Virus record (IMG/VR): IMGVR_UViG_3300031823_000009
Span: 1-50,775 of that record
DNA length: 50,775 bases
Direction: 5' to 3' (one strand)
From: a virus
Taxonomy: Duplodnaviria > Caudoviricetes
In this document: positions 11,665 to 34,932 of the stretch, one piece after another
Numbering within the stretch: the first letter of the stretch is position 1
Layout: each line of letters opens with the position of its first letter
Notes under the pieces: generated by a model
Told to the model about the DNA's origin: nothing
Databases searched by the model: none
What the model saw: only the letters and a program-made list of their open reading frames with translations
Translations under genes and position numbers: made by a program

Positions 11665-13248
11665 ATGAATTTGGTTATTTTCTGCATAGCTGTGCTAAGT
11701 GCCGTTCCAGCTTTTGCTCAGACTACAATCTATGCAGAGGGGGCTCCGATTTCAACGGAGGTGGGATCCGAGTTCACTATGAATTATTCATTTGGTGCGA
11801 TGCCGCTCGCAAGGAATTATACAGTCTTCGCCCAATTCGTAAACTCGGCGGGAGCCATAGTGTTTGCAGACTCATACTTCCCCTCGCCGGGAACATCTGT
11901 ATGGACTGGTGCGACGATGGTCAGCCGTAGGCTGACAGTACCGGCTACAGTGGCGCCGGGCAAATATTCGATTGTCGTCGGCCTTTACTACCCTCCGACC
12001 GGAGAGCGAGTCGGATTAGTGACTGGCCTCGGGGTCACGCAGTTCGGCTATCTGGATTACAACATCGGGAACCTCATGGTGTCTGCCGCGGTATCCGTCA
12101 CAGCGCCAGCCCCAGCCGTTACTGCGGGCTTCACAACGCTGGCTGCGAACTATGACTTTACTAAGCCCATGGCGGCGGATTGGCTTGATTGTTATCCCAA
12201 TGATGGGAAATCGCATCAGTTTTGGGCTGGATATTGGTATCGAACAGATATTCCGCCCTGCAACCAGTCTATCAATCTGGTGAATGACAAGGTCGCGGGG
12301 TCGCAAGTTTTGGACATGACTTGGAAACCTTCCTTCTATGGGATGGACCAAGGCTACACAGAGATTCAAACGGCTAGTCATGACGGAAGCCTGGCGACTG
12401 ACTTTCCCCCCAATGTCTATTTCGAAACGACTTATCGGGTTGAAACAACTCCAAATATCAACCTGTTGAATTGGGCCGATGTGGGTGGAAGTTTCTGGGG
12501 CATCTATACCTGGCCCACGGTCGGTATTGCCAAGCAGCTCCCAGGACTTGAAACCGACATTACCGAGGATCACGGGGACTTTCCCAGCTATGTGACCGGT
12601 GGCGGGTATTTTAATTGGGCCGCTGGCGGGTGCCCGAATTGCGGCGGCTTTGGTGGGGTGAGCGGCTTCGATCCGAGGCAATATCACACGGCGGGATTGC
12701 TGGTCACTAGTGACGGCAGCACTAGCATGGCCGTCTGCGGATATCTCGATGGCATACCCCATGGCTGTCGCAATGTTCTTAAACCGACTGTGGGAGATTT
12801 CTCCTACAGAAATTTTCTAATACTTATCAACGGAATTGGTTGTAATTACTATGCGGGAGATAATAGCTGTTTGAATGCGACTATTACGAATGTCTACGCA
12901 TGTCCCGCGCCAAATGCGGGGAAGATTTGCATTTCTCCGCGGACCTCGAGTCTATCGTGGAATGGCGCCGGTCACTGGATTGTTGAAGCGCAAAACAATC
13001 CTACGGTCATGATTTCTGGCGTCAATGGAGTGCCCGGTGCCAACGGTGTTTTTACCATGACTTTTTCTGGAACTTATAACGGAGATTGGGTTCTGAACGG
13101 GACGACATTCTCCGGAGCCTATACGGGTGGGGGAGAACTGAATCAGTACACGCAAACCGACATGTATGTGAAGAATGCTCGCGTGTGGAGTTGTGCGGGC
13201 TGGTCTTCTGGCTTATGCAATCGATCAGTGATAACAATTGCTCCGTAG
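11665..13248 (+). CDS. Secreted GH16-like (beta-jelly-roll) glycoside hydrolase or adhesin with N-terminal Ig-like domain
   Basis: GGAGG RBS; signal peptide MNLVIFCIAVLSAVPAFA-Q; ExDxxE motif (ETDITE), YHTAG and MYVKNARVW typical of GH16. Confidence 0.6.
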   Translation: MNLVIFCIAVLSAVPAFAQTTIYAEGAPISTEVGSEFTMNYSFGAMPLARNYTVFAQFVNSAGAIVFADSYFPSPGTSVWTGATMVSRRLTVPATVAPGKYSIVVGLYYPPTGERVGLVTGLGVTQFGYLDYNIGNLMVSAAVSVTAPAPAVTAGFTTLAANYDFTKPMAADWLDCYPNDGKSHQFWAGYWYRTDIPPCNQSINLVNDKVAGSQVLDMTWKPSFYGMDQGYTEIQTASHDGSLATDFPPNVYFETTYRVETTPNINLLNWADVGGSFWGIYTWPTVGIAKQLPGLETDITEDHGDFPSYVTGGGYFNWAAGGCPNCGGFGGVSGFDPRQYHTAGLLVTSDGSTSMAVCGYLDGIPHGCRNVLKPTVGDFSYRNFLILINGIGCNYYAGDNSCLNATITNVYACPAPNAGKICISPRTSSLSWNGAGHWIVEAQNNPTVMISGVNGVPGANGVFTMTFSGTYNGDWVLNGTTFSGAYTGGGELNQYTQTDMYVKNARVWSCAGWSSGLCNRSVITIAP

Positions 13249-13314
13249 CAGTCGAACATTGTTTATGATATGAATCAGTTCATGAATGACGGGCGATAGA
13301 CGTGGAGTTGATTA

Positions 13315-13647
13315 ATGGTAGATGTTCCATTCAAGACATACCAAGCTCTCGTAACGCGCCTGCACGAATATGGAAGAGCTGTCGCTGTTCTTGGTGGGAT
13401 GAACGACTTAGACGTGGCTTTGCATACGGCGGCAGGCGCCATAGACTTGCTGCAAAAGCACGTACCAGAAAGTGAGCGAGTCGAAATAGGTGGCTGGGAG
13501 GATACAGACCTGCCGGTAGAACTGGCACCTGGCTGCTGTTCGGCGATCAATCCATGCCCGCATCAGCAGTTGTATCCTGATTCTCTTTGTGATGTCTGTC
13601 GGGATCCGTGCGTCCAAAGGTGTGCGTTGTTGCGATTGATTGGATGA
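13315..13647 (+). CDS. Hypothetical protein with C-terminal Cys cluster
   Basis: GGAG RBS; CC..CPH..CDVC..C. Confidence 0.6.
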   Translation: MVDVPFKTYQALVTRLHEYGRAVAVLGGMNDLDVALHTAAGAIDLLQKHVPESERVEIGGWEDTDLPVELAPGCCSAINPCPHQQLYPDSLCDVCRDPCVQRCALLRLIG

Positions 13648-13692
13648 TGCGGATGCTTGGCAGCGCGCGTCGTTCGTGGTACGAATCAGTCC

Positions 13693-16600
13693 ATGAGCGA
13701 CGCATTCGGATCAAGCTACGGCCCCCCTCCTGCGCCCCAGCAACCTGCTTTTGGCAGTTCGTTCCTTGATTCGGCCATGCAAGCTGGGAAGTCGTTTCTG
13801 GGGGCATTCATGGGGCCGCAGTACAAGCCGACGAATCCAAATGCATCGCCGCTCGACCAATCGGCGGACCTGCTACAGCAGCGAATCAATCAGGCCAGTA
13901 GCATTGCTACGAATCCGTTTGCTCAGATGTGGTCGCCCGAAAAGGTGCAAGCCGCCCGAAATTTCGTGCCGCAGGCGACGGAGCAATTGCAGGCGATTAA
14001 CAATCAGCGCCAGCATCAAGCGGATATCAGGCAAGCGGCCATAAACAGGGGACTTAGAAATCCCGATCAATTCGGGCCTTCGGCAACCGACACCACGCTT
14101 AACGAAGAATCATTGCGTCAATGGAAGGACGAAGGCAATCCTGACGCTTACAAAGCATTACAAGGTGCAGGGGATGAGTGGGCAAACCGTGCAAATCTGT
14201 ACATGCCCGAGGCGATGGAAAAATTTTCTCAGCGCATCAATGCTGCACAAGACGCTATCAAGACTCTAGACGGCGCAGCCAACCCAAAGATGGGCGCACA
14301 AGCGTACGTTCAAAAACGGCAACAGGTTGTAGGTCAGCTCACACAGTTTGGAATCAAGGATAGCGATATTCCGCAGAAAGCAGACGGGTGGAGGTTAGCC
14401 AAGGGTCCGCTGCAGGCGCAGCTTAATCAAGCACTGGGCGTGTTGAACCAGTTCAACGCATCGCAAGACAGGCTAGGACAAGCCGTTCCTATCACGGATG
14501 ACAAGGTTGCATCGCGGATCGAAGGGTCGTTCATGTTTTCGAACACTGAACCGATACCTGGATTCAAGGCTGTAACGCTGCCCGGGAAAGGCGGCGTATC
14601 TGGCGCCATGGGGCCGCCCGGGTCGTTCGATACGACCAAGCGCGGCATGGGCGGTCCCGGCGGATGGTCGAATGCGCCGCCTGCACAGATCAAAACCGTA
14701 CAAGACCAGTTAGGTACGAAAGAAGTAGAAGGCGCCATCAATAAGTACAAGAGTGCGCGTGATTTCTACGATACGACGCATGATGACAAGCTGTACACGT
14801 CTGCAGCTGGCATCGCGATGATTCAGGACAAGACGGGTGGCGTGCTGCGCAACGTCTCGGAGGAGGCGAAAGGTTCGGGCACCATCGGTTATACGAAGAT
14901 GCTTGAACGCCAATTTGGTTCAGTCGAAGGCGCGCGCAACGAACTGGCCAAGGAATCTTCGGCGCTTAAAGAGTGGCTGGGCAGACCTGCGGATAAGCGT
15001 CTTTCGCCACCTTCGATCGAGGGCTTCAAATACATTTCGGAATTCGAACACGGTATGGCGTTGAAGGAATTGAATGATCGTCTTGGACAGCCATTGGAGA
15101 CGGCGGGCCGTTACGGTATGAAGCTGCAAAACCTTGGGCTCGACAAGGAAGTCACGAGTCAGCCCGATCTGTACAACACCTGGAACAACGCGAGGATTGC
15201 CGGCAACAAAGAAATCGACGGCTATCCAATGATACGGATAGACGATCAGCGGGTCATGTTACCGAAAAACAGCCACGTGCCCGGTGCGCAGGTCATGCGG
15301 CTGGACCACACTGACAACAGCGGAACTGTTCCCGGTGTACCGTCTAGCTCAGTGCCCCCGCCCGCCTCTGGCCCTGGCACTCCGCAGGGCGTACCCAATG
15401 CGGGCGGCGGTGCTGGGCCTGCCCCCTCTCCTTCCGGTACACCTAATGTGGGTGGCAGCCCAACGGCTCGGCCCCTTGGCGGTTCTCCGGTTCCCCCTGC
15501 CGCTCCTGCGGGTATTCCTAGCAGCCCGGTGGCTCCGGTTCATGGCGACCCCAATAACCCGCCGGGCCGTTGGGGCCTGACACCGGGGATGAAGCTCGAC
15601 AATCCCCAGGCCGTAGTAGCTTTGGCGAATCGCGAAATTCAGTTGGAAAGCGGCTTTCAGCCGAAGCAACGTACGGGGTCATATGTCGGGCTCGGGCAGT
15701 GGTCGCAGGAGGAAATGCAACGTCACGGCATTACGGACCCTGATGACTTGGAGCAAAACCGCACTGCGCTGCAGGCCGACATACGGACGCGGGCAGACAA
15801 GCTGCAGCGTGATGGGCTGCCCGTCACTGCGGCAAACGTCTACCTGATGCATCAGCAGGGCGAAGCCGGCTTAGAAGCGCACTTGCGCAATCCGGACGGC
15901 CTTGCTTGGCAAAATTTGAAGCCGTATTTCCGTTCAGACGCAATTGCGAAGCAGGCCGTTTGGGGCAACATGACGCCAGAAATGCGTGCTCAGTTCACAG
16001 CGCGTGGTGGTGTCAATGGCGTGACTTCCGGTGATTTCACGCGGCTGTGGGATGCGCGGACCAACGGCACGGACGGCGCCGGCTACACTATGGCGGGTCG
16101 GGGCAACATGCCACTCGCAATTCCCGAAAGCGCAAGTTCGGGGTTGGCAGCGCGCGGTCGCACTGCGCCTCGTGCGACGCAGGAACCTACGTCGCAAAGT
16201 AGGGCGGGCATGCTCGGGACAACGGGTCCTTTGATAGGTTCGTTGATTAATCGTGCCATGGAATTGGAAGGTCCGGCGATCGGTGGCACGGTTGGCGGTC
16301 TTGTCGGTGGCGCGCTTGGCGGGCCTGCGGGAATGCTTGGTGGCGGCGCGGCTGGCGGCGCGGCTGGGCAGGCCGCGAAGGATTGGCTGTCAGGGAATCC
16401 ACAGCAACCCGGTCAGATCGTCAAGCAAGGTGCCTTGCAGGGTGTTCTTGGTGTGGCGCCGGCAGGACGGCCGATTGTTGGCGCATTAGCGCGTATGGCT
16501 GGCGCGGGGGGTGTAGAAGCTGCTTCAAAATACGCGGAAGGAGGTGATCGGGCTGACGTTGTGGGAGCGGGGGTCGGCGGGGCGGCGTCTGCGGGGGCAA

Positions 16601-18123
16601 GCGAATTGTTCGGCCGCGCACTTGGCATGGTTACGCATAAAGTTTTTAGATTGTTCGGTCCCGACGCGCAAGAAGCGTTTCGTGGTGCCGCTGCAGATTT
16701 GCACGAGGCGAATGAGACGCTGAGGACCGAACCGGAGAAGTTGCCGGGCATTGCCGGTGGTGCCGAGACAGCAAATCCGAAATACGAGGCGGCGAAGGAT
16801 GCGAAGGAAAAAGCGGAATCGACGATCAAGGAAATGATTCCGACTGCAAAACCAGACGAAGTCGCGTACGCTCATAAGGTGAGTGCCGGTCCCGTGCCGA
16901 CGCCGGCTGCCGTTGCTAAGGCGGGATTTCCTGGTGCTAAGGAAAAGGCAGAACTCAGTGCCGCCTACGAGCAACTTCATGGCGAGGTAGGCGCAACTGG
17001 CGTACCGCCACCGATATCGCCGCCGAAGCTTCCGGATGGTCCGATTTCGGTTGTCGATAGCGGAAAAGTGGGGGAGCGATTCCGGGATACGGCTAAACGC
17101 GCGGAAGCTGTAGCAACGGCGCCGCGTTTCGATCCAGAGACGAAATCGCGTGATCTTCAAAAAGTTCGTTCATCGTTACTTGAAGCCGAGCAAAATGCTT
17201 TGACAAGTAATGAGTCTGATCGGGCGCAAACAGCTAAGGATATGCGCACGCTTGCCGATACCATACGTGTACAGCAAGAGAGGCTTGTGGATCACGTACT
17301 TGGGCCGGATGCGGCCAAACCATGGATTCAACGGCTTCGAACGATCGATTATCGTTATCGGCAATTGATGGATGCAACAAACGGCGGTAATTTGGAAGCT
17401 GCAGCCGGCCTTAAGGGCGAAGCTGGTCGTGAGGTTGATCGCAAGTTTCGCGCTTTTGCGCAGAATGATCCTGCAGCGGTTGCGGCTTGGAATCACATGC
17501 GCGTAAAGGCAGGCAATCCAGATGCTACTGAAAAATCTATTTTTGGCCAAATCTCACTGGAAAATTTTCCGGTTGTTGGAAAGTACCTTGCTTCGGGGGC
17601 ATCAATACTAAATCTTCGTAAATGGATGCGAGATAGGGCGGCGGGCAGTCCGGCACAATTCGGAGACTTCGTTCCCGGATATAACAATTTGAGTGGTCCT
17701 AAATCCGCACGCGATATTGCAGGAAGCAAATACGCTCGTTTCGGAGCTGACAGCGGTTGGAATCCGTTAGCAGCATCGCCTGCGCAAGCCGGTGAGATCA
17801 TACCTACGTCCCGGACGCCACTCAGTGCGGGCTCGGGCGGCGGTGTTCCAGCAAACAGTATCGGTCTGCCATCACAAGGAGCGCAGACAGTCATTTCACC
17901 TTCGTCTCTAAATGTGCAGGCAGCAATAAACAGAGCTAGTGCATATGTTAAAGGCGACAACAATGCCGGTGCCATGCAGAGAAACATCATGATCATGGAG
18001 CGCGGCGGCCCCATGGCCGAAAAGGTGGCCGATTTCGTAATGAGTACTTTCTCGCAGCATCCGTTCGAACGTACTGGCATGGTCCCTTCGGGACGTACTA
18101 TTCAGGGTGATTCTGTACGTTAA
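13693..18123 (+). CDS. Large internal virion (DNA ejection) protein with lytic transglycosylase-like domain
   Basis: About 1476 aa, A/G/Q-rich helical; IQLESG...YVGLGQW...VYLMHQQG lysozyme-fold motifs; Gly-rich GGLVGGALGG segment; Pro-rich linker. Confidence 0.75.
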   Translation: MSDAFGSSYGPPPAPQQPAFGSSFLDSAMQAGKSFLGAFMGPQYKPTNPNASPLDQSADLLQQRINQASSIATNPFAQMWSPEKVQAARNFVPQATEQLQAINNQRQHQADIRQAAINRGLRNPDQFGPSATDTTLNEESLRQWKDEGNPDAYKALQGAGDEWANRANLYMPEAMEKFSQRINAAQDAIKTLDGAANPKMGAQAYVQKRQQVVGQLTQFGIKDSDIPQKADGWRLAKGPLQAQLNQALGVLNQFNASQDRLGQAVPITDDKVASRIEGSFMFSNTEPIPGFKAVTLPGKGGVSGAMGPPGSFDTTKRGMGGPGGWSNAPPAQIKTVQDQLGTKEVEGAINKYKSARDFYDTTHDDKLYTSAAGIAMIQDKTGGVLRNVSEEAKGSGTIGYTKMLERQFGSVEGARNELAKESSALKEWLGRPADKRLSPPSIEGFKYISEFEHGMALKELNDRLGQPLETAGRYGMKLQNLGLDKEVTSQPDLYNTWNNARIAGNKEIDGYPMIRIDDQRVMLPKNSHVPGAQVMRLDHTDNSGTVPGVPSSSVPPPASGPGTPQGVPNAGGGAGPAPSPSGTPNVGGSPTARPLGGSPVPPAAPAGIPSSPVAPVHGDPNNPPGRWGLTPGMKLDNPQAVVALANREIQLESGFQPKQRTGSYVGLGQWSQEEMQRHGITDPDDLEQNRTALQADIRTRADKLQRDGLPVTAANVYLMHQQGEAGLEAHLRNPDGLAWQNLKPYFRSDAIAKQAVWGNMTPEMRAQFTARGGVNGVTSGDFTRLWDARTNGTDGAGYTMAGRGNMPLAIPESASSGLAARGRTAPRATQEPTSQSRAGMLGTTGPLIGSLINRAMELEGPAIGGTVGGLVGGALGGPAGMLGGGAAGGAAGQAAKDWLSGNPQQPGQIVKQGALQGVLGVAPAGRPIVGALARMAGAGGVEAASKYAEGGDRADVVGAGVGGAASAGASELFGRALGMVTHKVFRLFGPDAQEAFRGAAADLHEANETLRTEPEKLPGIAGGAETANPKYEAAKDAKEKAESTIKEMIPTAKPDEVAYAHKVSAGPVPTPAAVAKAGFPGAKEKAELSAAYEQLHGEVGATGVPPPISPPKLPDGPISVVDSGKVGERFRDTAKRAEAVATAPRFDPETKSRDLQKVRSSLLEAEQNALTSNESDRAQTAKDMRTLADTIRVQQERLVDHVLGPDAAKPWIQRLRTIDYRYRQLMDATNGGNLEAAAGLKGEAGREVDRKFRAFAQNDPAAVAAWNHMRVKAGNPDATEKSIFGQISLENFPVVGKYLASGASILNLRKWMRDRAAGSPAQFGDFVPGYNNLSGPKSARDIAGSKYARFGADSGWNPLAASPAQAGEIIPTSRTPLSAGSGGGVPANSIGLPSQGAQTVISPSSLNVQAAINRASAYVKGDNNAGAMQRNIMIMERGGPMAEKVADFVMSTFSQHPFERTGMVPSGRTIQGDSVR

Positions 18124-18139
18124 AGGCGGGACAGAGAAA

Positions 18140-20320: not shown

Positions 20321-21061
20321 ATGGTCCAAATTGTTAATCAATCCACCCTCAGCATTGGCGGTTTTCGGCATTATTCGGGCCTCTTGCCCTCCATACCGGG
20401 TGATGGCAGTGCGCAAGCTCAAGCGTCCGTGCGGCCTTTCCATCTTGCTCCGACGAATGCGCTTGCGATCTTCCGCGGTGACATTGTCGTCTTCAATTCC
20501 GCTACGATCGGCGTGCAGGGGGCTGGCGATCTTCCGGTCAATATTGGTCCTCCATCCGCTACAAGCCTTGTAATTGGCAATGGTGGCGGTTCGCTGCTTG
20601 GCAATGCTTCGATGGCGGCGAACGTTTCGCGGTGGGTTCCGGGCGACACCACTAGTGTTATTGCTGGCGTCGTGGTGGGCTTCGGTCCGATCACGCTCTA
20701 CATGGCAAAAAACGGCTTTCAGTACGTTCCTGCGTCTACCGAAGCGTGGGTTTTTGTCGAAACTGATCCGCAGGTCATGATGACTGCGACGGTGCCCACC
20801 GTACCCGCCACTGCGTTCAACCTTGACCTGAATAGCGGCGTTGATGTGAAGGCGAATGCCGCTTTCCAGAGCACGAGATTCGGCATTTCGGGAATGTCGC
20901 TTGATCCGACGACGATCCAAACGACTTCGACGCTGCCGCTTCGCTTTGTTAATTCGTCCGAGCAAATCGGAAACGATCCGACGGCGGCCGGCTTTGTTGC
21001 GCAAGTCACGTTCAACATGTCGCGCCATTACAAAGGCGGTGCCGGCTTCACTGCGGATTGA
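20321..21061 (+). CDS. Probable capsid decoration/cement-type structural protein
   Basis: GGFR..., AIFRGDIV, GVVVGF, YVPAST...V.TDP pattern recalled from proteins normally adjacent to gpT-like capsid genes. Confidence 0.55.
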   Translation: MVQIVNQSTLSIGGFRHYSGLLPSIPGDGSAQAQASVRPFHLAPTNALAIFRGDIVVFNSATIGVQGAGDLPVNIGPPSATSLVIGNGGGSLLGNASMAANVSRWVPGDTTSVIAGVVVGFGPITLYMAKNGFQYVPASTEAWVFVETDPQVMMTATVPTVPATAFNLDLNSGVDVKANAAFQSTRFGISGMSLDPTTIQTTSTLPLRFVNSSEQIGNDPTAAGFVAQVTFNMSRHYKGGAGFTAD

Positions 21062-21070
21062 GGAGCAAAT

Positions 21071-21640
21071 ATGTCACGTTTTCTCGCGATTTTTCTTGCG
21101 GCGGTTCTGTCGGTCGGCGGCGCAGTTGCGCAGACCGTCGTTTCACAACCGGTGTTCGTTCCATCGAAACAGTGGATCGATTTGGGCAACGGCCCGCTCG
21201 ATATTCAGCCGATTGAGGGTAACGGCGATCTTTATTCGTCATTTGGATCCGGACAAGGCAGTACGTCTGGGTCAACTACCAGTTTGGTGTTGACGACAAC
21301 GCCTTTGGTGTCGCCGTGCATAGGCTGTGTCATTTCCGGCCCCGGCATTACGTCCGGAACTACCGTCTCTGCATTCACGCTTGGAACATCGATCGCGCTT
21401 TCAACGTCCATGTCCGTGACGCCGGTATCATTGGTTTCGTGGGGAGCTGCGTGTCCCGCGGCAACTGCGGCCAACGTTCCTGGCGTCTTTCCAAATGGGG
21501 TTGCGTCGCTGTCACCGCCGGCTCCTGCTCGTTCAAGCATTGGCGGAACGTATCCGTTCTATACGCAAGCCCGTGTTTGTGCGTACGGTGCTGCGCAGAA
21601 CGGTTTTACGCTTCTTTATTTCGCGATCGGTGCTCATTGA
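21071..21640 (+). CDS. Secreted Ser/Thr-rich protein
   Basis: GAGGAG RBS; signal peptide MSRFLAIFLAAVLSVGGAVA-Q; GSTSGSTTS tract; 4 Cys. Confidence 0.75.
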   Translation: MSRFLAIFLAAVLSVGGAVAQTVVSQPVFVPSKQWIDLGNGPLDIQPIEGNGDLYSSFGSGQGSTSGSTTSLVLTTTPLVSPCIGCVISGPGITSGTTVSAFTLGTSIALSTSMSVTPVSLVSWGAACPAATAANVPGVFPNGVASLSPPAPARSSIGGTYPFYTQARVCAYGAAQNGFTLLYFAIGAH

Positions 21641-21641: not shown

Positions 21642-22730
21642 ATGCTGTGGATCGGGCTCGCCGTATCGCTTTGCTACGTTCCGGGTTTGACCGGAGCGTA
21701 CATCGCGACACAGTGGCCTTTGTTGGCTGTGATTCTGCCTTTCGGGTTGTTGTGGAAAGGGCCGTTCACAATTTTTCATTTGCTCGGACTTATCTTCGTT
21801 GACTATGCGGCAGTGCACATACTTTGGAGTCCTAATCCGTACGGTTCTGTCTATGGCGTGTGGCTGCTTGCCATTTCGGCGTTGGCTGTGTGGTTCGGAA
21901 CTGCCTTGGAAGATACGCGTGAGCTGTACAAAGGCTTAGCTATTGGCGCTACATTGTCGAGCTTCGTTGCCGTGCTGCAGTTTTTCGGTATTGGCGTTGT
22001 TCCCGTTACATCGACAATGCCCGCCGGTCTGTACGTCAACAGCGTACAGCAAGGTACTGTGCTTGCCCTTGTAGCGGTCGCGTTGATGACGGAGCGTATG
22101 TGGTTGTGGATTCCGTCATTGCTGCCCGGCATTTGGCTTTCGCATTCCCGTGGTGGTGCTATTGTTTTGTTGATAGGATTGCTTTGTTGCTGTTCACGTC
22201 GTTTGTGGATACCGGTAGGCGTTCTCGCGATGGCGGCTTCGATTTACCTATTTTATCCGCTTTCGCCGTCCGACAGTCAACGTCTGTACATTTGGCACGT
22301 CGCATGGGATAACTTGACATTGTTCGGCTGGGGTGCCGGAGCTTTCTTCAGTGCAGTTCTCGTGCATGACGGCGTCACTTTGTTTCCGGAGTACGCGCAT
22401 AATGACTTTTTGCAGTTCGCCTTCGAATTCGGTATCGGCGCGATTCTTCCTGCGATTATCATTGGTTATGCAGCATGGCGTACGGATGTTAAGGAATGGC
22501 CTGTCGTATTGGCATTCTGTGCGGCAGCGTGTTTTTCAATGCCGCTCTCCATGCCGATCGCTGCGTTTCTTTCTTTGGTCGCTGTGGGGCGTGTTCTTCG
22601 CGCTCATGGCCTACATGGCAGCGAGCGCAACTATCGCGGATATGATTTCTTATCGTGGGATGACACGTGCCGACTGGCAATTCGCGGCCGAGATCTTTCC
22701 ATGGCACCGCAGCATTCAGCAAAAGGCTAA
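21642..22730 (+). CDS. O-antigen ligase / O-oligosaccharyltransferase family (Wzy_C, WaaL/PglL-like) membrane protein
   Basis: Polytopic hydrophobic profile; GLYVNS, SHSRGG, QRLYIW, FGWGAG, YAHNDFLQFAFEFGIG are Wzy_C signature motifs. Confidence 0.85.
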   Translation: MLWIGLAVSLCYVPGLTGAYIATQWPLLAVILPFGLLWKGPFTIFHLLGLIFVDYAAVHILWSPNPYGSVYGVWLLAISALAVWFGTALEDTRELYKGLAIGATLSSFVAVLQFFGIGVVPVTSTMPAGLYVNSVQQGTVLALVAVALMTERMWLWIPSLLPGIWLSHSRGGAIVLLIGLLCCCSRRLWIPVGVLAMAASIYLFYPLSPSDSQRLYIWHVAWDNLTLFGWGAGAFFSAVLVHDGVTLFPEYAHNDFLQFAFEFGIGAILPAIIIGYAAWRTDVKEWPVVLAFCAAACFSMPLSMPIAAFLSLVAVGRVLRAHGLHGSERNYRGYDFLSWDDTCRLAIRGRDLSMAPQHSAKG

Positions 22731-25528: not shown

Positions 25529-25739
25529 GTACGATCATACTGCAGACAATGCCGCAACGCAAGCTAGATTTGAATGTGACATGCCGGACATTATGAGTCG
25601 TCTCTTGTCGGGAGTGAGTAGTGCAGCCGGGTGTGGTGTACATTTTCTGCAAGTACGCGACGACGGCATTCTGATTTCGCGCGGAACCGCTGAATTCATC
25701 ATGCGAAATTTCACAAAGGCAAGTCATGAGCGGATTTGA
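25518..25739 (+). CDS. Hypothetical protein between the two paralogs
   Basis: MPYKYDHTADN...; overlaps both neighbours. Confidence 0.5.
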   Translation: MPYKYDHTADNAATQARFECDMPDIMSRLLSGVSSAAGCGVHFLQVRDDGILISRGTAEFIMRNFTKASHERI

Positions 25740-26175: not shown

Positions 26176-26802
26176 ATGTCCTACAATTCGCTGACTGACT
26201 TTATAGCGTTGCTTCGTAGTACGGGTGGCGGCGTCCGTACGGAACAGATGCCGGGCCTTGATTTTGTCGTGGCTGCTTTAGGCCGTGCTGGTTTCATAAC
26301 TCTGGCAGTTCAAGCTACTGCACCAATATCTAACCAAGCTGCAACGGCCTGGTTTCAGCCTGCGTCACCATCGTGGAGTGCTGAGGGTATTCTGTATTTG
26401 TGGAATCCCGCAGTTTCGGCGTATCAGCCCGCCACGCCGGCTTTATGGGAACAGTATTTTTTACCGCTCATATCTGGTTATGCATTCCAAAGTATAAACG
26501 GAACGGGACAGGCTATCGTCGCCGGCACGTCGCTGGCGGCTGTACAGCGCGCCGCGCCCGCTACCACAGCGATTACGCTTCCGACGCTTGCCAATCAATT
26601 CGCCAGTGGAAAGAAACTGCAAATTGTGGATTTTTCTACGGCTGTCACGAATCATGTTATTACATTGAGCGTGCCTGAAATAGTTTCGTCACCAACTATT
26701 ATGGGGCAAGCGACGCTGCAAATGCTTTCCACGGCTGTACAGCTTGCAGGAGTCATGCTACAGCCATCCCCTGATCTCAATGCGTGGGTAATAGCACCAT
26801 GA
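26176..26802 (+). CDS. Putative tail-fibre-associated structural protein
   Basis: A/T-rich; TAITLP...LQIVD...AW C-terminal pattern seen in fibre domains. Confidence 0.55.
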   Translation: MSYNSLTDFIALLRSTGGGVRTEQMPGLDFVVAALGRAGFITLAVQATAPISNQAATAWFQPASPSWSAEGILYLWNPAVSAYQPATPALWEQYFLPLISGYAFQSINGTGQAIVAGTSLAAVQRAAPATTAITLPTLANQFASGKKLQIVDFSTAVTNHVITLSVPEIVSSPTIMGQATLQMLSTAVQLAGVMLQPSPDLNAWVIAP

Positions 26803-28025
26803 AGATGCTCCGCTCAGTTCTTGCCGTTTTCGCATGTTTCGTTGCAATTCCAGCATTCGCGCAGTGGCAAACACCGAATCATTCCACTCCTGTCGGTCGT
26901 GGCGTCGGCGTCATTGGTTTTGGCAGTGTTGGACCGTGCAATTCTGGCGTGCCTATTCTTGGTGCCGGGGGTTCTGCCGATCCGGCGTGTAATCCGCTTC
27001 CTTTAGGTGGTTCGGGCGTTACGGGGAATCTACCTGTTGCCAATCTTAATTCCGGCACCAACGCGTCCGCCACGACTTTTTGGCGTGGTGACGGTACGTG
27101 GTCGCCCCTCAATTTTGGCATTCCTGCTAATTTGCAGCTTAACGCCAGTGTCGCAACGAACAATTTGACGGTTGCCATTAAGGGAAGCAACGGTGCCGAT
27201 CCGTCGGCATCTAATCCGGTGCTGATTCCGTTCCGGGATCCAATTATTGCGAATGGCGATCCAATAATCCGTTCGCTTCAAGCACCGCTCAGTATTTCAG
27301 CCACTTCAGGCTTTGCAGTAGGGTGCAACAATGCCCAAATGTGCCGGTTGTGGGTTGCGGCAATCGACAATGCCGGTACTGTGGCTCTGTGTTTGTATAA
27401 CGCGCGTTCCGCGCCGGCTGGGGCGTTTGCCAGTTTGATTCCTCTTAACGAGAGCAACGTTGCTACGTCTTTCGCGGGATCGGGAGGCGGCGCTAATGCA
27501 CAAGTACTGTACTGTACGTCTGTATCCGTCACAAGCAAGTCGATTAAGGTGCTTGGATACATAGACATACAAGAGGCCACTGCAGGGACTTGGGCCACAG
27601 GTCCGACTACTGTGCAATTGTCGGGTCCTGGCATTCCTATAGCTGGTCAAACGGTTCAAGAAATAGGGATGAACACTGCCGTAACGCAGCTTGTTACATC
27701 GGCTACGCCTGCCACCAGCAACATGACGTTGAGTTTAACTCCTTTCAGTGCGGCTGACATAGTTTCGTGTTCGGCGTCCACATGGGATTCTCCTACGGGG
27801 GCTGGAGGTGAGTTAATAGTGCAGATTTATCGAGGGGCTACAGCTTTAGCTCAATCCATAACAACAGGTCCGGCTAATAGCAATGCAGCCATTGCAATTG
27901 GGCCGGTGTTTGACGTACCAAATTCCGCTTCTTCGCTGACCTATGCGCTGTTTGTCGCTGCGCCAGGAGCCGCGACCGTCACGGTCGAAACCGGCATGAT
28001 TGCCTGTCGAGAGTTGCAGGGATGA
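26799..28025 (+). CDS. Tail-fibre-like protein with Sec signal peptide
   Basis: MKMLRSVLAVFACFVAIPAFA-Q; fibre motif VTGNLPVANLNSGTNASATTFWRGDGTW; 8 Cys in the mature part. Confidence 0.7.
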   Translation: MKMLRSVLAVFACFVAIPAFAQWQTPNHSTPVGRGVGVIGFGSVGPCNSGVPILGAGGSADPACNPLPLGGSGVTGNLPVANLNSGTNASATTFWRGDGTWSPLNFGIPANLQLNASVATNNLTVAIKGSNGADPSASNPVLIPFRDPIIANGDPIIRSLQAPLSISATSGFAVGCNNAQMCRLWVAAIDNAGTVALCLYNARSAPAGAFASLIPLNESNVATSFAGSGGGANAQVLYCTSVSVTSKSIKVLGYIDIQEATAGTWATGPTTVQLSGPGIPIAGQTVQEIGMNTAVTQLVTSATPATSNMTLSLTPFSAADIVSCSASTWDSPTGAGGELIVQIYRGATALAQSITTGPANSNAAIAIGPVFDVPNSASSLTYALFVAAPGAATVTVETGMIACRELQG

Positions 28026-29066: not shown

Positions 29067-29441
29067 ATGGATGACGCCACCACAAGCTTTTTGGAAACCG
29101 TGATTGCCGGACAGGCCCGCCACATCCTTACAGGCGTCGCTGGCGGCCTGGTCGCCCATGGTGCCCTCACAGCAGATCAAAGCAATTCGTTCGTCCAGAT
29201 TGGCGTCGGCCTCGTGCTGTATGGCGTTGGAGCCGGATGGTCATGGTGGCAGAAAAACGGCCAAGCACTCGTTAAGGCACGGTTCGACAAACTTAGGCAT
29301 CGCGTCGCCGCCATTCCAATCGTAACAGCGACTACGCCGACGATTGCGGTCAACTCGGCTATTATTAAAGCAAAGGAAATGGCGGTAGTAGATACGACCG
29401 CGAATCCGGTTCTTCCCGTGACGGGAGATCAGCGATTATGA
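29067..29441 (+). CDS. Putative holin
   Basis: RHILTGVAGGLVAHG, TM segment ending WSWWQK; directly after the endolysin. Confidence 0.65.
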   Translation: MDDATTSFLETVIAGQARHILTGVAGGLVAHGALTADQSNSFVQIGVGLVLYGVGAGWSWWQKNGQALVKARFDKLRHRVAAIPIVTATTPTIAVNSAIIKAKEMAVVDTTANPVLPVTGDQRL

Positions 29442-29683
29442 CTATGCCGGATCGCAAGTTCCCGTGGATTTGGACTGCATTCCTTCTCGCGTTCGTCATC
29501 GGCTTTGCCGTGATCGAAGGATGGGCGCTTGCGACTGGCGGCACGACTTTGTCGCGATACACCTACGAGCTTTCGAAAGATTGGCCCGTCTTGCCATGGC
29601 TGCTTGGCAACGTCACGGGAGGGCTTGCAGTGCATTTTTGGTGGCATTGGACTATTCCTGGAGAAGCGGGCGACGGAGGTTAA
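29438..29683 (+). CDS. Small two-TM membrane protein
   Basis: Hydrophobic, GLAVHFWW; in the lysis cluster. Confidence 0.65.
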   Translation: MTMPDRKFPWIWTAFLLAFVIGFAVIEGWALATGGTTLSRYTYELSKDWPVLPWLLGNVTGGLAVHFWWHWTIPGEAGDGG

Positions 29684-29688
29684 TATTT

Positions 29689-31227
29689 GTGTCCGTTCCA
29701 TGGGAGCGGCCTGTTCGGCTGAGTAAAGAGAGCGTACGGGACGCTCTTCTTTTAAATTTCGATAGATATCGTGAGACATTTTTGCGTGTCCGCCCTCCTA
29801 TAGGCGGCGAGCGCATTCCTTTTATTTTGAACAGCATGCAGCGCGTTCTGCATGCTGGCATTGAGAAGGAACGTGCTAAGTTCGGCATGGTGCGCGCCCT
29901 GGTTCCTAAGGCCCGGCGGATGGGCGTCAGTATGTACATAGGCGGCCGTTTTTTCCACCGTACTGCAACGCAGACAGGCAGACGTGCGCAAGTTGTTGCA
30001 CATCGATCTGACAGCGCTACGAATTTGCATCGGGAAATTAAGGAATTCTACAATGGGCTTCCTGCGTGTGCACGTCCACATTTAGGTGCATCAAACGCAC
30101 GCGAACTGATTTTTGACGTACTTAAATCACTGTACAAAGTCGCATCGGCAGAAGGTGGTGATATTGGCCGTTCCGATGATTTTCACTTGCTGCATCTGTC
30201 GGAGGCTGCGTTTTTTGATAATACGGAGGACTTGTCGTCCGGTTTGCTGCAAACCGTACAGAACCTTGCAGATACGGAAATTATTGTTGAGAGCACGGGT
30301 AATGGCCAATCAGGCATGTTCTACAGCATGTGTCAGGAAGCGCACATTGCACGGAATGAAGGGCCGTGGCGACTGTACTTCTTACCGTGGCCGTTAATGC
30401 CTGAATATCGTATAGCGGTTCCCGCTAATTGGAAAGCTCCGAAAGAATTCGAGGACTACGCTAAATTTCATGCGCTTGATCAGGAACAGACATACTGGTT
30501 CTGGCTAGAGAACTACACTATTACTACAATGAATGGCGGTCACCCTGGAAGCATTCACAGACTAACGAGACAGGAATATCCGGCTACGTACGATGAATGT
30601 TTTATGGCAGATAGTACGCTGGACTTTTTTTCGGCGTCTACTGTTCAAGCTGCCATGATGCGCAAGCCGAGTCCATCAACTGGAGCGCTTAAGCTTCTCT
30701 GTATTGATCCGGCCGGTGATGGGCAGGACAAACCTTTCGTGTGTGACCGACAAGGTTCTGCGATCGGCGCTCGGGTTTGGGGAGAGTTGGCTAATAGGGA
30801 TTACAATGTGCAAGCAGATTGGCTTGTACAGACCTTTGAACGCTTCGGCATGGACGCAATTCTCGTGGATATCACCGGGACCGGCAAGGGGCTCGCGGAT
30901 GCGTTGCGGCTTCGTATGCGGCGGTTTGGAGTGGAAAAAGTGATAGCAGTGAATTTTGCTTGGGGTGCTCTTAACGGTACGCTGTACGGCAATAGACGTG
31001 CGGAGTTGCATGATAAATTTCAGCGATGGTTGCAAAGCGATGTGTCGATGCCGAATGACGAACAATTGCAAAAAGAAGCGGCGGCGTACAAATGGGGCCA
31101 AGGCGGTTGCCGACGTGATGAGAAAGCACGACTGTTCATGACGCCGAAAGAGAAAATCCGTGCGGAGATCGGCCGATCGCCTGATCGGCTTGATGCTTGC
31201 GTCGTTTCAATGGCTATGGAGGGTTGA
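29689..31227 (+). CDS. terL: Terminase large subunit
   Basis: GGAGG + GTG start; Walker A PKARRMGVS, Walker B LHLSEAAF, ESTGNG, nuclease IDPAGDGQD, VDITGTG, SPDRLDA. Confidence 0.92.
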   Translation: MSVPWERPVRLSKESVRDALLLNFDRYRETFLRVRPPIGGERIPFILNSMQRVLHAGIEKERAKFGMVRALVPKARRMGVSMYIGGRFFHRTATQTGRRAQVVAHRSDSATNLHREIKEFYNGLPACARPHLGASNARELIFDVLKSLYKVASAEGGDIGRSDDFHLLHLSEAAFFDNTEDLSSGLLQTVQNLADTEIIVESTGNGQSGMFYSMCQEAHIARNEGPWRLYFLPWPLMPEYRIAVPANWKAPKEFEDYAKFHALDQEQTYWFWLENYTITTMNGGHPGSIHRLTRQEYPATYDECFMADSTLDFFSASTVQAAMMRKPSPSTGALKLLCIDPAGDGQDKPFVCDRQGSAIGARVWGELANRDYNVQADWLVQTFERFGMDAILVDITGTGKGLADALRLRMRRFGVEKVIAVNFAWGALNGTLYGNRRAELHDKFQRWLQSDVSMPNDEQLQKEAAAYKWGQGGCRRDEKARLFMTPKEKIRAEIGRSPDRLDACVVSMAMEG

Positions 31228-31598: not shown

Positions 31599-31630
31599 AG
31601 AGCCCGCGGCTGTCCAACACCGCGGGCTCT
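31599..31630. terminator. Hairpin between convergent genes
   Basis: AGAGCCCGCGG-N10-CCGCGGGCTCT. Confidence 0.65.
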
Positions 31631-31656
31631 GGCCCCCGTCGTGCCCACCCAGGACT

Positions 31657-34600
31657 TTACTGTCCGTTCTGATGGTACTGCGCGGTCGCCGAGGCGTCAA
31701 GTGCCGTGCAGGTGCCGGCAGAGATCGCCCACGCCGTGTAATCACCCGCGGTGATCGCCGGATTGGTAACCGCTCCTACAACGGCGGCTCCGCTTGCTGT
31801 TAGAGTTACCGTTCCGATTGTGATCGGCGTTGCGGTACAAGTTGCGCTCGTTCCGCATTCGTAGAAAGTAATTGTCGGATTTCCTGCGCAAGTGAATGAA
31901 CTAGTGGACCCTATCAAATTGTCTACGGTAGATGATTTTACCCATTTTTGGAATTGAGCAATGGTATTGACTATGCTCGCCTGAAATCCAGGGGCGTATG
32001 TTGTGGACAACTGCGGACCCGGCCCTACGGTACGTCCGCTCAGTTCGTAGGGAAAAATCGGATACAGACCGCTCGCTGTGGCAGCGGAACTGAGTGTCAT
32101 TGAGCCTGGATTGGCAGGCGTTAGCGTTAAAAGTGTAACACCGCCGGAATTACTTGTCGGCCAAGGTGAACTGCCACCCCCGAACTGGAAAGGCGCAAGT
32201 AATAAGTCACCGACTTTGTAGTATGTTCCGAGATCGGTACCAATCACGCCATTACCGTTGCTGACGTTGCTTACGGTTGTACTACCACTGGTAAACAGTC
32301 CGTATTCCAACTGTCCTGGAATTGTCACGCCGGTTTTTATGAGCGCAGTGTTTCCTGAATTCAGGAGCGGCGTTGCGTTGAGATTGCTCGCCCACGTATT
32401 TGTGTTGGGAGTTACCGTGAGATTGTTCTGTTGAACGGCCGTAATGACCGATGACGTAGTTGGCGCGAATGTGCAGTTTGTCGCATCGGGTACCGGCGAT
32501 CCTACTGACAGCACAACGAATATTGTGCCGCTGTTGAAATGGTATAGGATATCTCCCGGAGCCATTACGTAAACGATTCCGTTGCTTCCTAATTGGTAAA
32601 CATTGCAATAATTAAATTGCATCACGTCATTGGTGTAAGTCGGCAATACGGAAATTTGAGTGCCTGGGGAAGACGGAAATGTAAGCTGAGCAGGAGCGGG
32701 TACTGTCATATTCCAAGAGCGGCCTTGTGTGTCTACGTACGTCTTCATATCCTGTGTCATTGGGAAGCGATTGGTAAGGTTTCCACGCGTAAGTACATCG
32801 GCATGGGGATACGAACTAAGGCTAGAACTGGCGGTCATTGCTTCCGCACCAATCGTCTGACTATTGTTGACTAGATAAGTGCCGTTGCCGCCGCCTCCTG
32901 TGCCTAACGCTGTGATGCACGTGTTTGCAGTGACTCCTGCGCCGGTGTATATGCAGGAGCCGATTGCTAGCGATCCGCCGACGACGCCGCCGGTAACCGT
33001 CAACGTGCCGCCATTGGTGGTAGATATCGCTCCTGTGAAGCTTACAGTCGAATAATATGAGCCAAGATAATATTGTGGTACCTGCCAATTGTTAATGGCG
33101 CTGGGGTTATAACGTGGCGCTCCGGCAAACATGCTGCCGGTGTAATTGATCGCTTGCAATTGCATGGGAGTTACCGCTCCCGCTACAGCACCTTGGATGC
33201 CACCTCCATTTAAGACAGCAGTAGTTTGCGACCCACCGCAGAACAAATTTGATATTCGCTGATTTCCGTTGAAATTGACGCCGGTCATGCGAATTTCGGC
33301 GTTTGTGGCGGTTATGAAGCACGCAGGGATTTGACCGTGCAGTGTTTCGGTTAGGTTGAACGTGCTGTTCTTCAAATCTACTAGGTTATTGAATGATGTA
33401 TTAGAAATGAAGTTACCAATTCGCACGCATCCTTCACAATATATTTCCGATATATCGAGAGGGCCGGACAGTCCAAGGTTACCAAAGTTGAACACTTGGT
33501 AAACTGGTGAACAGCCGATATTGCTGATCGGGCCGTTAAATTCACCTTGTTGCATTCCAAGTGTGGTTTGGTCAATTACGGTGTAATTGAATCCACAAAC
33601 GAAATTGCTGATATTAACGTTGCGGCTTTGTGAATTGGTTATGCTAAGTCCGTAGGGATTGTATGCGATATTGAGGTTTTGCGTTTTCAGAAAATCTCCG
33701 TTGTTCTGAGTATTTAGACCGACGGCGAAGGCTACTCCAAACCCATTGATATTGACATTCTTCAATTCGATATCCGACGTGACGGCTTTGCCGTACTGAG
33801 CGCTAAGCATAGTCCACGCCGGAAATGTCAAGTTTGGGTACGGTGCGGATACTGGTTGTGTGCCTGAATAGGCATCTACCGTCACTGCCGCCCACGGCGT
33901 ATGCTGAGTAAACCCGCCAGAAGTCCCCGATGGCGTAAATTCTGGCGGCAGCCAATCGTTCACGTTTGACGACAGGTTGAAACCGCTGCTCATCGTAAAC
34001 AATAGATAATTGTATAGTCGTCCCCAAAACGTAACACCGTACAGACCGACTTGCCGGCCAGATTGAAAATTAATCGCTGGTCTGTCCGTTTGGGTTGGAT
34101 ACAAATTGCATCCTGGTAACTGATTGTACCCACCGCGATACCCACCAGATAGACGAAACGCATAAAATCCATTTCCCCACCCAGCTTGCAGAACGTCCGT
34201 AATCTTGAAGTTTCCGAAACAATAGAAATCAGCGACTCCCGACTGCATTCCGTAATCAAACATGGCTTGGAAAGCGGCTGTGTTGTCAGTGCCAGTGACG
34301 GCATCCGCCCACGCGACTGAAGGGATCGTTAGTGATGTAGGCACGGCTTGCGATGCGACGATATTTCCCGAGCCTACGCTGACAATAGTCGTGCCGCTTG
34401 GAATGATAGGCAGGGAAGCAGCTTGGCGCGTTGCCCAGCCGACGGTTGTGATGTGCTGCCCGGGAGCCAATCCGGCCGTACTTGAAACAGTGACCGTCGT
34501 CGTGCCGTTGGCGGTTGCCGTCCATCCGTATGATCCAGCAATCGGCGACCCTGCATCGGAAAGGGCACCCCATTGTTTTACGTCTACGGCGCCAGATGGA

Positions 34601-34932
34601 AATGAAGCAATCCAGCATTTGCCGTCTGCGCTCGGGACCTGCGCACCGTTGTCGCCGGCCCCTGCATTGAACGTGCAAGCGCCTGCACTTGGATTGTAGA
34701 ACAGCGGCGGCGCGCCATTGCCGTTGCCGTAGGTTGTGCGCCAAACGCCAGTGGGATAGGCTGCCGTAGAAGCTAATGTGAGGGCTGTTAAATTGGCAAC
34801 CCCTCCTGCGCCGCCAGTGCCGCCTCCTCCCGGGTTGTTGGGGAGTTGGCTGCCGCCGAAATTAGGGAGCCCCTGTGCGAAAGCAGCGACGCTAAATATC
34901 AGCAATAAGAAAAATGCGGCTATCCGTTTCAT
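31657..34932 (-). CDS. Tailspike-like beta-helix protein with Sec signal peptide
   Basis: MKRIAAFFLLLIFSVAAFA-Q; VDVKQWGA...DNTAAFQAM pectate-lyase-like tailspike start; N/G/T-rich beta-helix repeats; 18 Cys. Confidence 0.75.
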   Translation of the reverse strand: MKRIAAFFLLLIFSVAAFAQGLPNFGGSQLPNNPGGGGTGGAGGVANLTALTLASTAAYPTGVWRTTYGNGNGAPPLFYNPSAGACTFNAGAGDNGAQVPSADGKCWIASFPSGAVDVKQWGALSDAGSPIAGSYGWTATANGTTTVTVSSTAGLAPGQHITTVGWATRQAASLPIIPSGTTIVSVGSGNIVASQAVPTSLTIPSVAWADAVTGTDNTAAFQAMFDYGMQSGVADFYCFGNFKITDVLQAGWGNGFYAFRLSGGYRGGYNQLPGCNLYPTQTDRPAINFQSGRQVGLYGVTFWGRLYNYLLFTMSSGFNLSSNVNDWLPPEFTPSGTSGGFTQHTPWAAVTVDAYSGTQPVSAPYPNLTFPAWTMLSAQYGKAVTSDIELKNVNINGFGVAFAVGLNTQNNGDFLKTQNLNIAYNPYGLSITNSQSRNVNISNFVCGFNYTVIDQTTLGMQQGEFNGPISNIGCSPVYQVFNFGNLGLSGPLDISEIYCEGCVRIGNFISNTSFNNLVDLKNSTFNLTETLHGQIPACFITATNAEIRMTGVNFNGNQRISNLFCGGSQTTAVLNGGGIQGAVAGAVTPMQLQAINYTGSMFAGAPRYNPSAINNWQVPQYYLGSYYSTVSFTGAISTTNGGTLTVTGGVVGGSLAIGSCIYTGAGVTANTCITALGTGGGGNGTYLVNNSQTIGAEAMTASSSLSSYPHADVLTRGNLTNRFPMTQDMKTYVDTQGRSWNMTVPAPAQLTFPSSPGTQISVLPTYTNDVMQFNYCNVYQLGSNGIVYVMAPGDILYHFNSGTIFVVLSVGSPVPDATNCTFAPTTSSVITAVQQNNLTVTPNTNTWASNLNATPLLNSGNTALIKTGVTIPGQLEYGLFTSGSTTVSNVSNGNGVIGTDLGTYYKVGDLLLAPFQFGGGSSPWPTSNSGGVTLLTLTPANPGSMTLSSAATASGLYPIFPYELSGRTVGPGPQLSTTYAPGFQASIVNTIAQFQKWVKSSTVDNLIGSTSSFTCAGNPTITFYECGTSATCTATPITIGTVTLTASGAAVVGAVTNPAITAGDYTAWAISAGTCTALDASATAQYHQNGQ

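Follow-up and report, generated by a model that had tools for sequence, protein, structure and literature searches.

In the textbook view, tailed phages assemble wholly in the cytoplasm. The closest described counterparts of the system considered here are multi-part fibres and adaptor-tailspikes, such as T4 gp34–gp37 and the adaptors of the G7C, CBA120 and SP6 type, and in these known systems every part, to our knowledge, folds and assembles in the cytoplasm. The Sec pathway is used by other phage proteins, including spanins, T4 Spackle and T5 Llp. Secretion signals are likewise described on phage endolysins, among them Lys44 of fOg44 and the SAR endolysins (PMC6116005). In the literature covered, which included PMC3556154 and PMC13412088 and lay largely outside subscription journals, we found no secretion signal described on a fibre or spike of a tailed phage. 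Here we describe a complete Caudoviricetes record of 50,775 bp (IMG/VR record IMGVR_UViG_3300031823_000009; its full length is called the window below) with direct terminal repeats; it belongs to a tailed phage, and four of its predicted proteins, P0001 to P0004, begin with Sec-type leaders. The best explanation of the evidence as a whole, which we hold to be somewhat more probable than its negation, is that all four are exported, that P0003 forms part of a two-piece tail fibre, and that P0001 and P0004 are glycan enzymes. The features on which this account turns are as follows.

11665..13248, + strand: P0001, predicted exported glycanase, GH16-like, with an additional N-terminal domain; 12 cysteines (Cys) in the mature chain
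21071..21640, + strand: P0002, predicted small exported protein; 4 Cys
26176..26802, + strand: predicted proximal anchor subunit of 208 amino acids (aa); no leader, 0 Cys; its stop codon overlaps the P0003 start (ATGA)
26799..28025, + strand: P0003, predicted exported distal tail-fibre subunit; leader residues 1-21 (26799-26861), 8 mature Cys
31657..34932, − strand: P0004, predicted exported protein of 1,091 aa; leader, Gly-rich linker, beta-helix at about residues 200-628, 18 mature Cys

A two-piece fibre ending in P0003 would resemble T4 gp34–gp37 and the adaptor systems in that a tail-anchored proximal protein bears a separately encoded distal receptor-binding trimer, and in having an N-terminal anchor domain common to several fibres of one phage group. 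It would differ from both in that the distal part carries a Sec leader and Cys pairs and in that the docking surface is an N-terminus made by cleavage. Like Lys44, SAR endolysins, spanins, Spackle and Llp, the window proteins are phage-encoded, bear a predicted N-terminal export signal and may act in the envelope, but those Sec users are lysis or exclusion proteins, small or enzymatic and none of them a particle fibre, whereas P0003 is fibre-like. A cellular parallel comes from the MAT fibres of Bdellovibrio bacteriovorus, which combine a signal peptide, a conserved N-terminal domain of about 130 aa, a stalk and a variable adhesive tip (PMC10769870). P0003 has the same succession of signal peptide, conserved N-domain, fibre and variable tip, the tip likeness being structural, by fold. 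It differs from these proteins of a predator in its shorter conserved N-domain (about 45 aa), its place in a phage tail cassette and the anchor protein adjoining it.

An earlier note on this DNA claimed that the four open reading frames (ORFs) start with a signal peptide ending in A-x-A before a Gln, and the translations bear this out. Leaders were called with our own heuristic for n-, h- and c-regions, applied to 251 ORFs of at least 60 aa in six frames, and cleavage sites rest on this heuristic together with conservation. The calls are MNLVIFCIAVLSAVPAFA|Q for P0001 (start 11665), MSRFLAIFLAAVLSVGGAVA|Q for P0002 (start 21071), MKMLRSVLAVFACFVAIPAFA|Q for P0003 (start 26799) and MKRIAAFFLLLIFSVAAFA|Q for P0004 (start 34932, minus strand). 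All four share one layout, a short charged stretch, 11-16 hydrophobic residues, A-x-A and then Gln, with n-regions that read MN, MSR, MKMLR and MKR, and among window ORFs of at least 100 aa with an h-region score of at least 30 only these four were flagged. Under von Heijne's rule, signal peptidase I leaders have a charged n-region, a hydrophobic h-region of 7-15 residues and small uncharged residues at −3 and −1; by the heuristic, all four ORFs are of this Sec type. Two other leader classes were considered and rejected on reading the sequences: none of the four ORFs has the twin-arginine motif of a Tat leader, and in all four the +1 residue is Gln, with no lipobox Cys. Shine-Dalgarno sequences precede three of the starts (GGAGG at 11665, GAGGAG at 21071, AAGGGG at 34932) and so support them, while the P0003 start at 26799 overlaps the upstream stop codon as ATGA.

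Conservation of the leaders in homologues, a check named in the earlier note, holds in each of the four families. The mature chain of P0003 begins with an invariant QWQTPNHS, and conservation in its family sets in at the predicted cut itself, with A21 and Q22-S29 unchanged throughout. A back-translated QWQTPNH pattern matched 42 loci in viral contigs, 19 of them short chance ORFs and 23 real homologues, and in 23/23 of the latter a leader ending in A/V-x-A abuts QWQTPNHS. A profile of the leader plus N-domain, searched against 1.84 billion cluster representatives, matched 868 at E≤1e-3 and 423 at E≤1e-10. Family statistics were drawn from the best 150 representatives, of which 144 had the leader-motif arrangement and were used; the exceptions were five long proteins, in which part of the profile recurs as internal repeats, and one protein without a leader. 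In the 144 leaders the −1 residue is Ala in 139, Gly in 3 and Ser in 2, and the −3 residue is Ala in 118, Val in 19 and Thr in 7; leader length is 18-29 in 141/144, and all 144 have Lys or Arg in the n-region. It is therefore strongly supported, from sequence comparison, that these leaders are cleavable Sec (signal peptidase I) export signals that would act as such in vivo. The five long proteins (P0043, P0044, P0085, P0123 and P0157; 813-1,883 aa) each hold 6-13 internal repeats of N-domain profile positions ~28-65, and this segment of the P0003 N-domain therefore exists also as a repeat unit.

Cysteine content points in the same direction. The mature chains of P0001 to P0004 hold 12, 4, 8 and 18 Cys, and ORFs 20321, 22734, 26176 and 43113 hold none; our recount agrees with the earlier note on the all-even counts and on these Cys-free, leaderless neighbours. 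Together, the four mature chains have 42 Cys in 2,136 residues, against 28 in 7,226 for 24 other late-region proteins (odds ratio 5.2, Fisher p 2e-11). Four even counts are a 1-in-16 event and weak alone, so that the evidential weight rests on homologue statistics. The mature Cys count is even in 128 of the 144 leader-bearing P0003-family representatives (binomial p 7e-23), and the Cys pair GPC...DPxC covaries in the family, with both present in 30, neither in 105 and a single one in 1; in alignment A5 both are present in 5 sequences and neither in 9. Cys make up 1.72% of mature leader-bearing fibres versus 0.22% in 33 leaderless fibres of this phage group that carry the anchor domain, an 8-fold difference. 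Conserved leaders, the −3/−1 rule, Cys parity, the covarying pair and the Cys excess lend strong support to a proposal of the earlier note, Sec export with oxidative folding outside the cytoplasm, and we consider it very likely that P0001 to P0004 are exported and would form disulfides in vivo.

The gene order around P0003 suggests what the exported protein may be for. The 208-aa protein encoded directly upstream is highly conserved (mean column identity 69% in 18 sequences), and its gene lies upstream of the fibre gene in 22/23 loci, the 23rd (L113) beginning at the fibre. The two genes abut or overlap in 19 loci; in L128 the anchor start is beyond the locus edge, and in L010 and L139 (identical in sequence) a 0.9-kb gap separates the two genes. 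The N-terminal ~95 aa of the anchor protein recur at the start of longer leaderless proteins in the same cassettes, ~380-aa proteins and one of 808 aa. In all 33 longer relatives the likeness is confined to the N-terminal 37-54% of the anchor protein, and all are leaderless, Cys-poor fibres; one of them, P0222, matches Peptidase_S74, an endosialidase-chaperone domain characteristic of fibres (E 5.1e-15), and tail-fibre PHROGs (E 1.8e-18). Since this N-domain recurs in leaderless tail fibres, it behaves as a particle anchor of the phage group, and the ~200-aa forms are therefore anchor-only proteins with a leader-bearing fibre next to them. L127 and L119 each contain a second anchor and leader-bearing fibre pair, with a different leader-bearing fibre in each case. 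The layout extends beyond this lineage: in L154, L156 and L158, which have none of the window phage's core genes, large leader-bearing, Cys-rich proteins directly follow tail-fibre-family genes (Collar, E 4e-24, in L154; tail-fibre PHROGs in L156; Mtd_N in L158). A PDB sequence search with the anchor alignment returned nothing.

Structure prediction of the pair is consistent with direct docking. A complex of three mature P0003 chains and three 208-aa chains, modelled with our own alignments, scored 0.73 (runs 0.73, 0.73 and 0.85) against 0.00 for all three controls; the mark used for this score was reached by 58/80 solved complexes and 2/110 mismatched pairs, in a calibration whose set-up differs from that of our model. 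At least 90% of the contacts recur between runs, and the predicted local distance difference test (pLDDT) of the partner is at least 87. The modelled interface joins anchor residues 175-193, 206 and 208 to P0003 Q22-N27 and G34-G43, so that the docking residues of P0003 are the first of its mature chain, exposed by leader cleavage.

P0003 itself has the build of a receptor-binding fibre. It is present in all four relatives G001-G004, with a conserved N-terminus and a diverged C-terminus, and its gene lies in the tail cassette between fibre-like paralogues and the holin gene. In alignment A2 all 16 invariant columns fall within residues 21-62, and identity to the window protein drops to 23-40% in 12 of the 13 other full-length sequences; a conserved proximal part, a variable distal part and a tail-cassette position thus coincide. 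A common tail-fibre motif at residues ~68-107 matches 595/600 viral stretches found by pattern. The predicted structure (mean pLDDT 67) is good from residue 110 onward and ends in a TNF/C1q-like jelly roll at residues 283-408, which aligns with the TNF-like Photorhabdus lectin 9ib6_A (Z 14.9, root-mean-square deviation (rmsd) 1.9, 118 aligned), Chlamydia Pgp3 (Z 14.6), the C-terminal domain of Bdellovibrio Bd2734 (Z 10.9, rmsd 2.3, 114 aligned) and phage receptor-binding heads (Z 9-10). Its named viral structure neighbours in BFVD are tail-fibre proteins. P0003 thus combines a fibre motif with a receptor-binding tip, in a trimer state that is modelled only. No particle-binding N-domain of its own was found, the leader being followed instead by the conserved segment of ~45 aa; there was no family in Pfam, PHROGs or NCBIfam, and a PDB sequence search was empty. 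As a separate observation, the homologues in L107, L108, L115, L123 and L140 run past the conserved ...E(I/L)(M/Q)G end (A2 columns ~750-840) into an extra C-terminal tail, such as AL-EPANDNG-LEMAG, before which the window protein ends; the 'ANDN' of this tail is reminiscent of how alphaproteobacterial tmRNA tags begin.

P0004 closes the portal/scaffold operon, and its fold suggests an enzyme. Although the predicted model is poor overall (mean pLDDT 48.8), residues 200-628 align as a right-handed parallel beta-helix with polysaccharide lyases, epimerases and phage tailspikes (Z 18-25.7). The closest structure is the RbmB lyase (9ozd_A; residues 201-602, Z 25.7, rmsd 3.2, 308 aligned), followed by phage tailspikes at Z 21-24.6 (top 24.6, 24.3 and 23.9), AlgG (Z 19.0) and WceF (Z 18.8); Foldseek matches had E 1.7e-4 to 7e-4. 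P0004 is therefore predicted, on this model, to be a beta-helix, depolymerase-like protein. It shares its fold with the tailspike depolymerases P22 gp9, CBA120 TSP1-4 and the Acinetobacter and Klebsiella spikes, but differs from them in having a predicted cleavable leader in place of a particle-binding domain, 18 Cys and a C-terminal four-Cys domain; no head- or tail-binding N-domain was found, only the leader and the Gly-rich linker. Pantoea WceF is a bacterial tailspike-like beta-helix enzyme with a Tat signal (PMC7949094). Like WceF, V. cholerae RbmB and P. aeruginosa AlgG, P0004 combines the beta-helix fold with predicted export to the envelope, whereas those enzymes belong to host polysaccharide loci. 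We found no Pfam or NCBIfam family for P0004 and an empty PDB sequence search, with one unnamed PHROG on residues 629-704.

Leaders recur among the relatives of P0004. Seventeen relatives were found and 11 examined, with leaders called by reading: eight have a Sec-like leader, P0015 has a twin-arginine-like one and P0010 has none. The relative P0007 (37% identity) carries a classical tail-fibre N-terminus in place of the leader. Five further loci with the P0004 N-region all start with hydrophobic leaders, as do all twelve loci with its C-terminal domain (10 flagged by the heuristic, 2 by reading only). That domain, of ~110 aa, is conserved with four invariant Cys; it was considered as a type IX secretion domain, a sorting signal and an intramolecular chaperone, and Pfam gave no match for any of these. 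P0004 was not found in the complete relative G004, and in five Alphaproteobacteria metagenome-assembled genomes (MAGs) gave a single short N-region match. It could be either a free exported enzyme or particle-bound. By reading, the leader of P0015 (30% identity, beta-helix) is twin-arginine-like (..VTRRSVSLGLLGSVIAGKALA), as in the bacterial enzyme WceF.

P0001 is probably GH16-like, judging from weak but concordant matches. GH16 enzymes carry the catalytic motif E-x-D-x-(x)-E. The P0001 motif LETDITE at 319-325 (E-x-D-x-x-E at 320-325) has E320 and D322 invariant in 6/6 sequences and the last Glu kept in 5/6, and it lines up with the EVDIE region in a GH16 glucanase. All nine weak PDB profile matches are to GH16 (E 0.045-0.48), 16/30 Atlas feature matches fall in the GH16 set, at 0.93, and a PDB sequence search gave beta-glucosidase matches only (E 0.021). 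P0001 resembles GH16 beta-glucanases and laminarinases in this motif but differs in its extra N- and C-terminal regions, its many Cys and its lack of a match in Pfam (GH16 profile PF00722, E≤0.1), NCBIfam or PHROGs. Six of its Cys are invariant in homologues, in close pairs. P0001 was not found in five related phage records, both complete relatives included, nor in a pattern scan of viral contigs; as it and P0004 lack counterparts in complete relatives, both appear to be accessory genes. Its homologues are secreted bacterial proteins (5/5 with leaders, by reading), and its cellular relatives lie in uncultured Alphaproteobacteria MAGs (5/6 genome matches) and one Acidobacteriota MAG. Since the relatives of P0001 are secreted bacterial proteins, a secreted factor fits it better than a virion part, and P0001 is likely a free exported glycanase. 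The label 'tailspike/fibre-like', which the earlier note gave to all four proteins, thus holds for P0003 and P0004, while P0001 looks like a glycanase and P0002 is not recognisably a fibre.

These results suggest a route in which all four precursors would be exported via Sec and folded with disulfide bonds outside the cytoplasm. The 208-aa proximal half would be made in the cytoplasm, its N-terminal ~95-aa domain serving as virion anchor as in the leaderless fibres of relatives, while P0003 would be exported, cut after A-F-A, stabilised by about four disulfides and trimerised into a fibre that ends in the TNF/C1q-like domain. Once the holin has opened the inner membrane, particles built in the cytoplasm would meet the periplasmic fibres, and the new N-terminus of P0003 (Q22-N27, G34-G43) would dock on the anchor C-terminus and complete the fibre. 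P0004 and P0001 would be exported enzymes that cut glycans, present in some relatives and missing from others, most likely free enzymes acting on host envelope or matrix polysaccharide, although P0004 may also be particle-bound. Leaders, conservation, Cys statistics, folds and gene pairing come from sequence and comparison and the docking from modelling; from these we infer export, cleavage, disulfides and joining at lysis. The earlier note had proposed for all four proteins either attachment to particles at lysis or action as secreted receptor-masking or degrading factors; only P0003 has indirect support for attachment, from the stop/start overlap with a leaderless anchor gene and the modelled docking, and P0001, P0002 and P0004 have no such support. 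We judge it moderately likely that P0003 is exported as the distal half of a two-piece fibre and joins the virion at lysis. Whether a large uncultured group of tailed phages builds its host-recognition fibres in two compartments, the receptor-binding half being joined on holin opening, we regard as evenly poised; counting the P0003 type alone, the group would comprise at least 423 clusters (50% identity), and unrelated lineages that share the layout would add to it.

Several points weigh against a two-compartment fibre. The virion role of P0003 is predicted from genes and a model; no cultured relative was found, and the best capsid identity to an isolated phage is 35%. The complex score expresses model confidence, from 3+3 copies and own alignments unlike those of the calibration. 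No fusion of the anchor C-terminus to a QWQ fibre was found, and 0/33 longer forms cover the C-terminal half of the anchor, which is weak evidence. The Cys count is odd in 16/144 P0003-family members and 4 have no Cys; disulfides are therefore not universal in the family. No anchor-only gene precedes P0001 or P0004, both of which are missing from complete relatives, and the leaderless fibre at 43113-43814 might alone serve as the receptor-binding protein. This last point also favours a possible but rather less probable explanation, in which all four proteins are exported and none is a virion part: they would be receptor-destroying or masking factors, public-good depolymerases or MAT-like cell-surface fibres, and the 208-aa protein an escort in the cytoplasm or a remnant of how the fibre arose. 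The accessory distribution of P0001 and P0004 and the secreted bacterial relatives of P0001 (5/5 leaders; 5/6 genome matches to Alphaproteobacteria MAGs) would fit such roles, as would the fold that P0004 has in common with the exported bacterial enzymes RbmB, AlgG and WceF (Tat signal; PMC7949094). The leader, conserved N-domain and variable tip of P0003 likewise follow the MAT-fibre plan (PMC10769870; Bd2734 tip, Z 10.9). However, P0003 occurs in all four relatives with an invariant N-terminus and a C-terminus that diverges as in receptor-binding proteins, its partner protein, usually encoded with a start/stop overlap, carries a tail-fibre anchor N-domain, and the model docks the pair via exactly the residues that leader cleavage exposes.

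Alternatively, the hydrophobic N-termini may stay uncleaved, as membrane anchors or in another role such as holding fibres at the inner membrane until lysis, in which case folding would take place in the cytoplasm or facing it. The cleavage calls rest on a heuristic and conservation, and SAR endolysins show that N-terminal hydrophobic anchors can be releasable (PMC6116005), but we consider this quite improbable: the −3/−1 rule is kept in 144/144 leaders, their length is 18-29 in 141/144, conservation begins at +1, even Cys counts and the covarying pair point to an oxidising compartment, and the leaderless fibres of the same phages are Cys-poor. Less probable still, to the point of being hardly credible, is that the anchor and P0003 form one chain through a programmed frameshift at the ATGA overlap, which would make the 'leader' internal. 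The genes do overlap, and the P0003 frame is open for 197-315 codons upstream in L105, L115 and L123. In the window, however, a stop at 26772-26774 closes that frame 9 codons before the ATG, no slippery heptamer was seen by eye in the 30 nt upstream, a full n/h/c leader is kept in 144/150 representatives with gene calls starting at the leader, and the genes lie 0.9 kb apart in L010 and L139.

If P0003 does join the virion by way of Sec, this would be a morphogenetic route not yet described for Caudoviricetes, and completion of the particle would be tied to the lysis step. Were receptor-binding parts routinely exported and oxidised, infective progeny would require the host's Sec, signal peptidase and Dsb systems, which would thereby form a new class of host factors and possible defence targets. 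Recombinant production of such fibres and depolymerases would need periplasmic expression, and annotation in which a signal peptide counts against a virion role would give a large family the wrong label. The 208-aa anchor and the mature fibre form a directly testable pair with a predicted interface.

P0002 was found in 4/5 related records, with the leader and four Cys kept in G001, G002, G003 and G004. It has no family in Pfam, PHROGs or NCBIfam, and its Atlas leads are weak (0.84, TM about 0.4). Its neighbours, and the small ORF that accompanies P0001, are as follows.

20321..21061, + strand: 246-aa conserved protein directly before P0002; no leader, 0 Cys; found in G001-G004
21642..22730, + strand: multi-pass membrane protein of the late operon, two bases after P0002; many hydrophobic segments, by reading
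13315..13647, + strand: 110-aa ORF accompanying P0001; 7 Cys, no leader

The product of 21642..22730 matches Wzy_C PF04932 (O-antigen ligase/polymerase, PglL-type) at E 6.6e-6 and 26.4 bits, below the 31.7-bit cut-off, and has no NCBIfam match. It is kept in G001, G002 and G004, and in G003 its place is taken by a leader-bearing protein of 306 aa that has 10 Cys. This Wzy_C-like membrane protein might modify the exported proteins, for example by glycan transfer, or a host glycan. The ORF at 13315..13647 has no Pfam family and no match in G001 or G004; G003 gives one short match (47 aa, 47% identity).

The rest of the genome is that of a tailed phage, with a replication block of family-A polymerase, primase-helicase and SNF2 helicase and the following late genes.

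29091..29441, + strand: holin, Pam3 gp28 family (PF23987, E 1.2e-8, 35.3 bits, cut-off 27)
29464-31227, + strand: large terminase
38949-39881: capsid protein
41629-43113: head-closure (Hc3) family protein
43113..43814, + strand: tail fibre of 233 aa, leaderless, 0 Cys (phrog_2631, E 6.6e-24), adjoining the Hc3 family gene

The last of these is a conventional cytoplasmic fibre of the same phage. Megablast of 20 kb matched no cultured phage, and tblastn of P0003 against cultured phages found the short common fibre motif only, in 4 records. The closest capsid match to an isolated phage is 35% identical, and the isolated phages among the capsid matches infect mostly Alphaproteobacteria (Roseobacter, Pelagibacter, Caulobacter), but also Alcaligenes and cyanobacteria. 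The host of the window phage is probably diderm and possibly an alphaproteobacterium.

Homologues of the terminase ORF align from residue 76 only, which puts its true start probably near 29689; the stretch before that point overlaps a membrane ORF of 81 aa with two segments (29438-29683), itself downstream of the holin. Between P0003 and the holin, the ORF at 28022-29053 (+ strand, 343 aa) has no family match, and hydrophobic segments lie towards its C-terminal end. Conservation in G001/G002 is 93%, and neither G003 nor G004 gave a match; the ORF may encode the endolysin. The ORFs 24896-25528 and 25726-26166 (+ strand) are paralogues of no family found that have their first ~100 residues in common (MxGFDNG...GDLY.DV) and are kept in nearly all of the 23 fibre-pair loci.

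Among the relatives, G001 is complete and ~90% identical, and lacks P0001 and the adjacent 110-aa Cys-rich ORF. G004, complete and ~65% identical, lacks P0001 and P0004 and has other leader-bearing ORFs elsewhere. Further leader-bearing proteins, mostly with even Cys counts, lie at 12772-16218(−) and 17124-18344(−) in G004 (L095) and at 2243-2944(−) and 8290-9210(−) in G003 (L098). Since these extra proteins occupy other positions in the relatives, each clade member appears to have its own set of 3-5 exported proteins.

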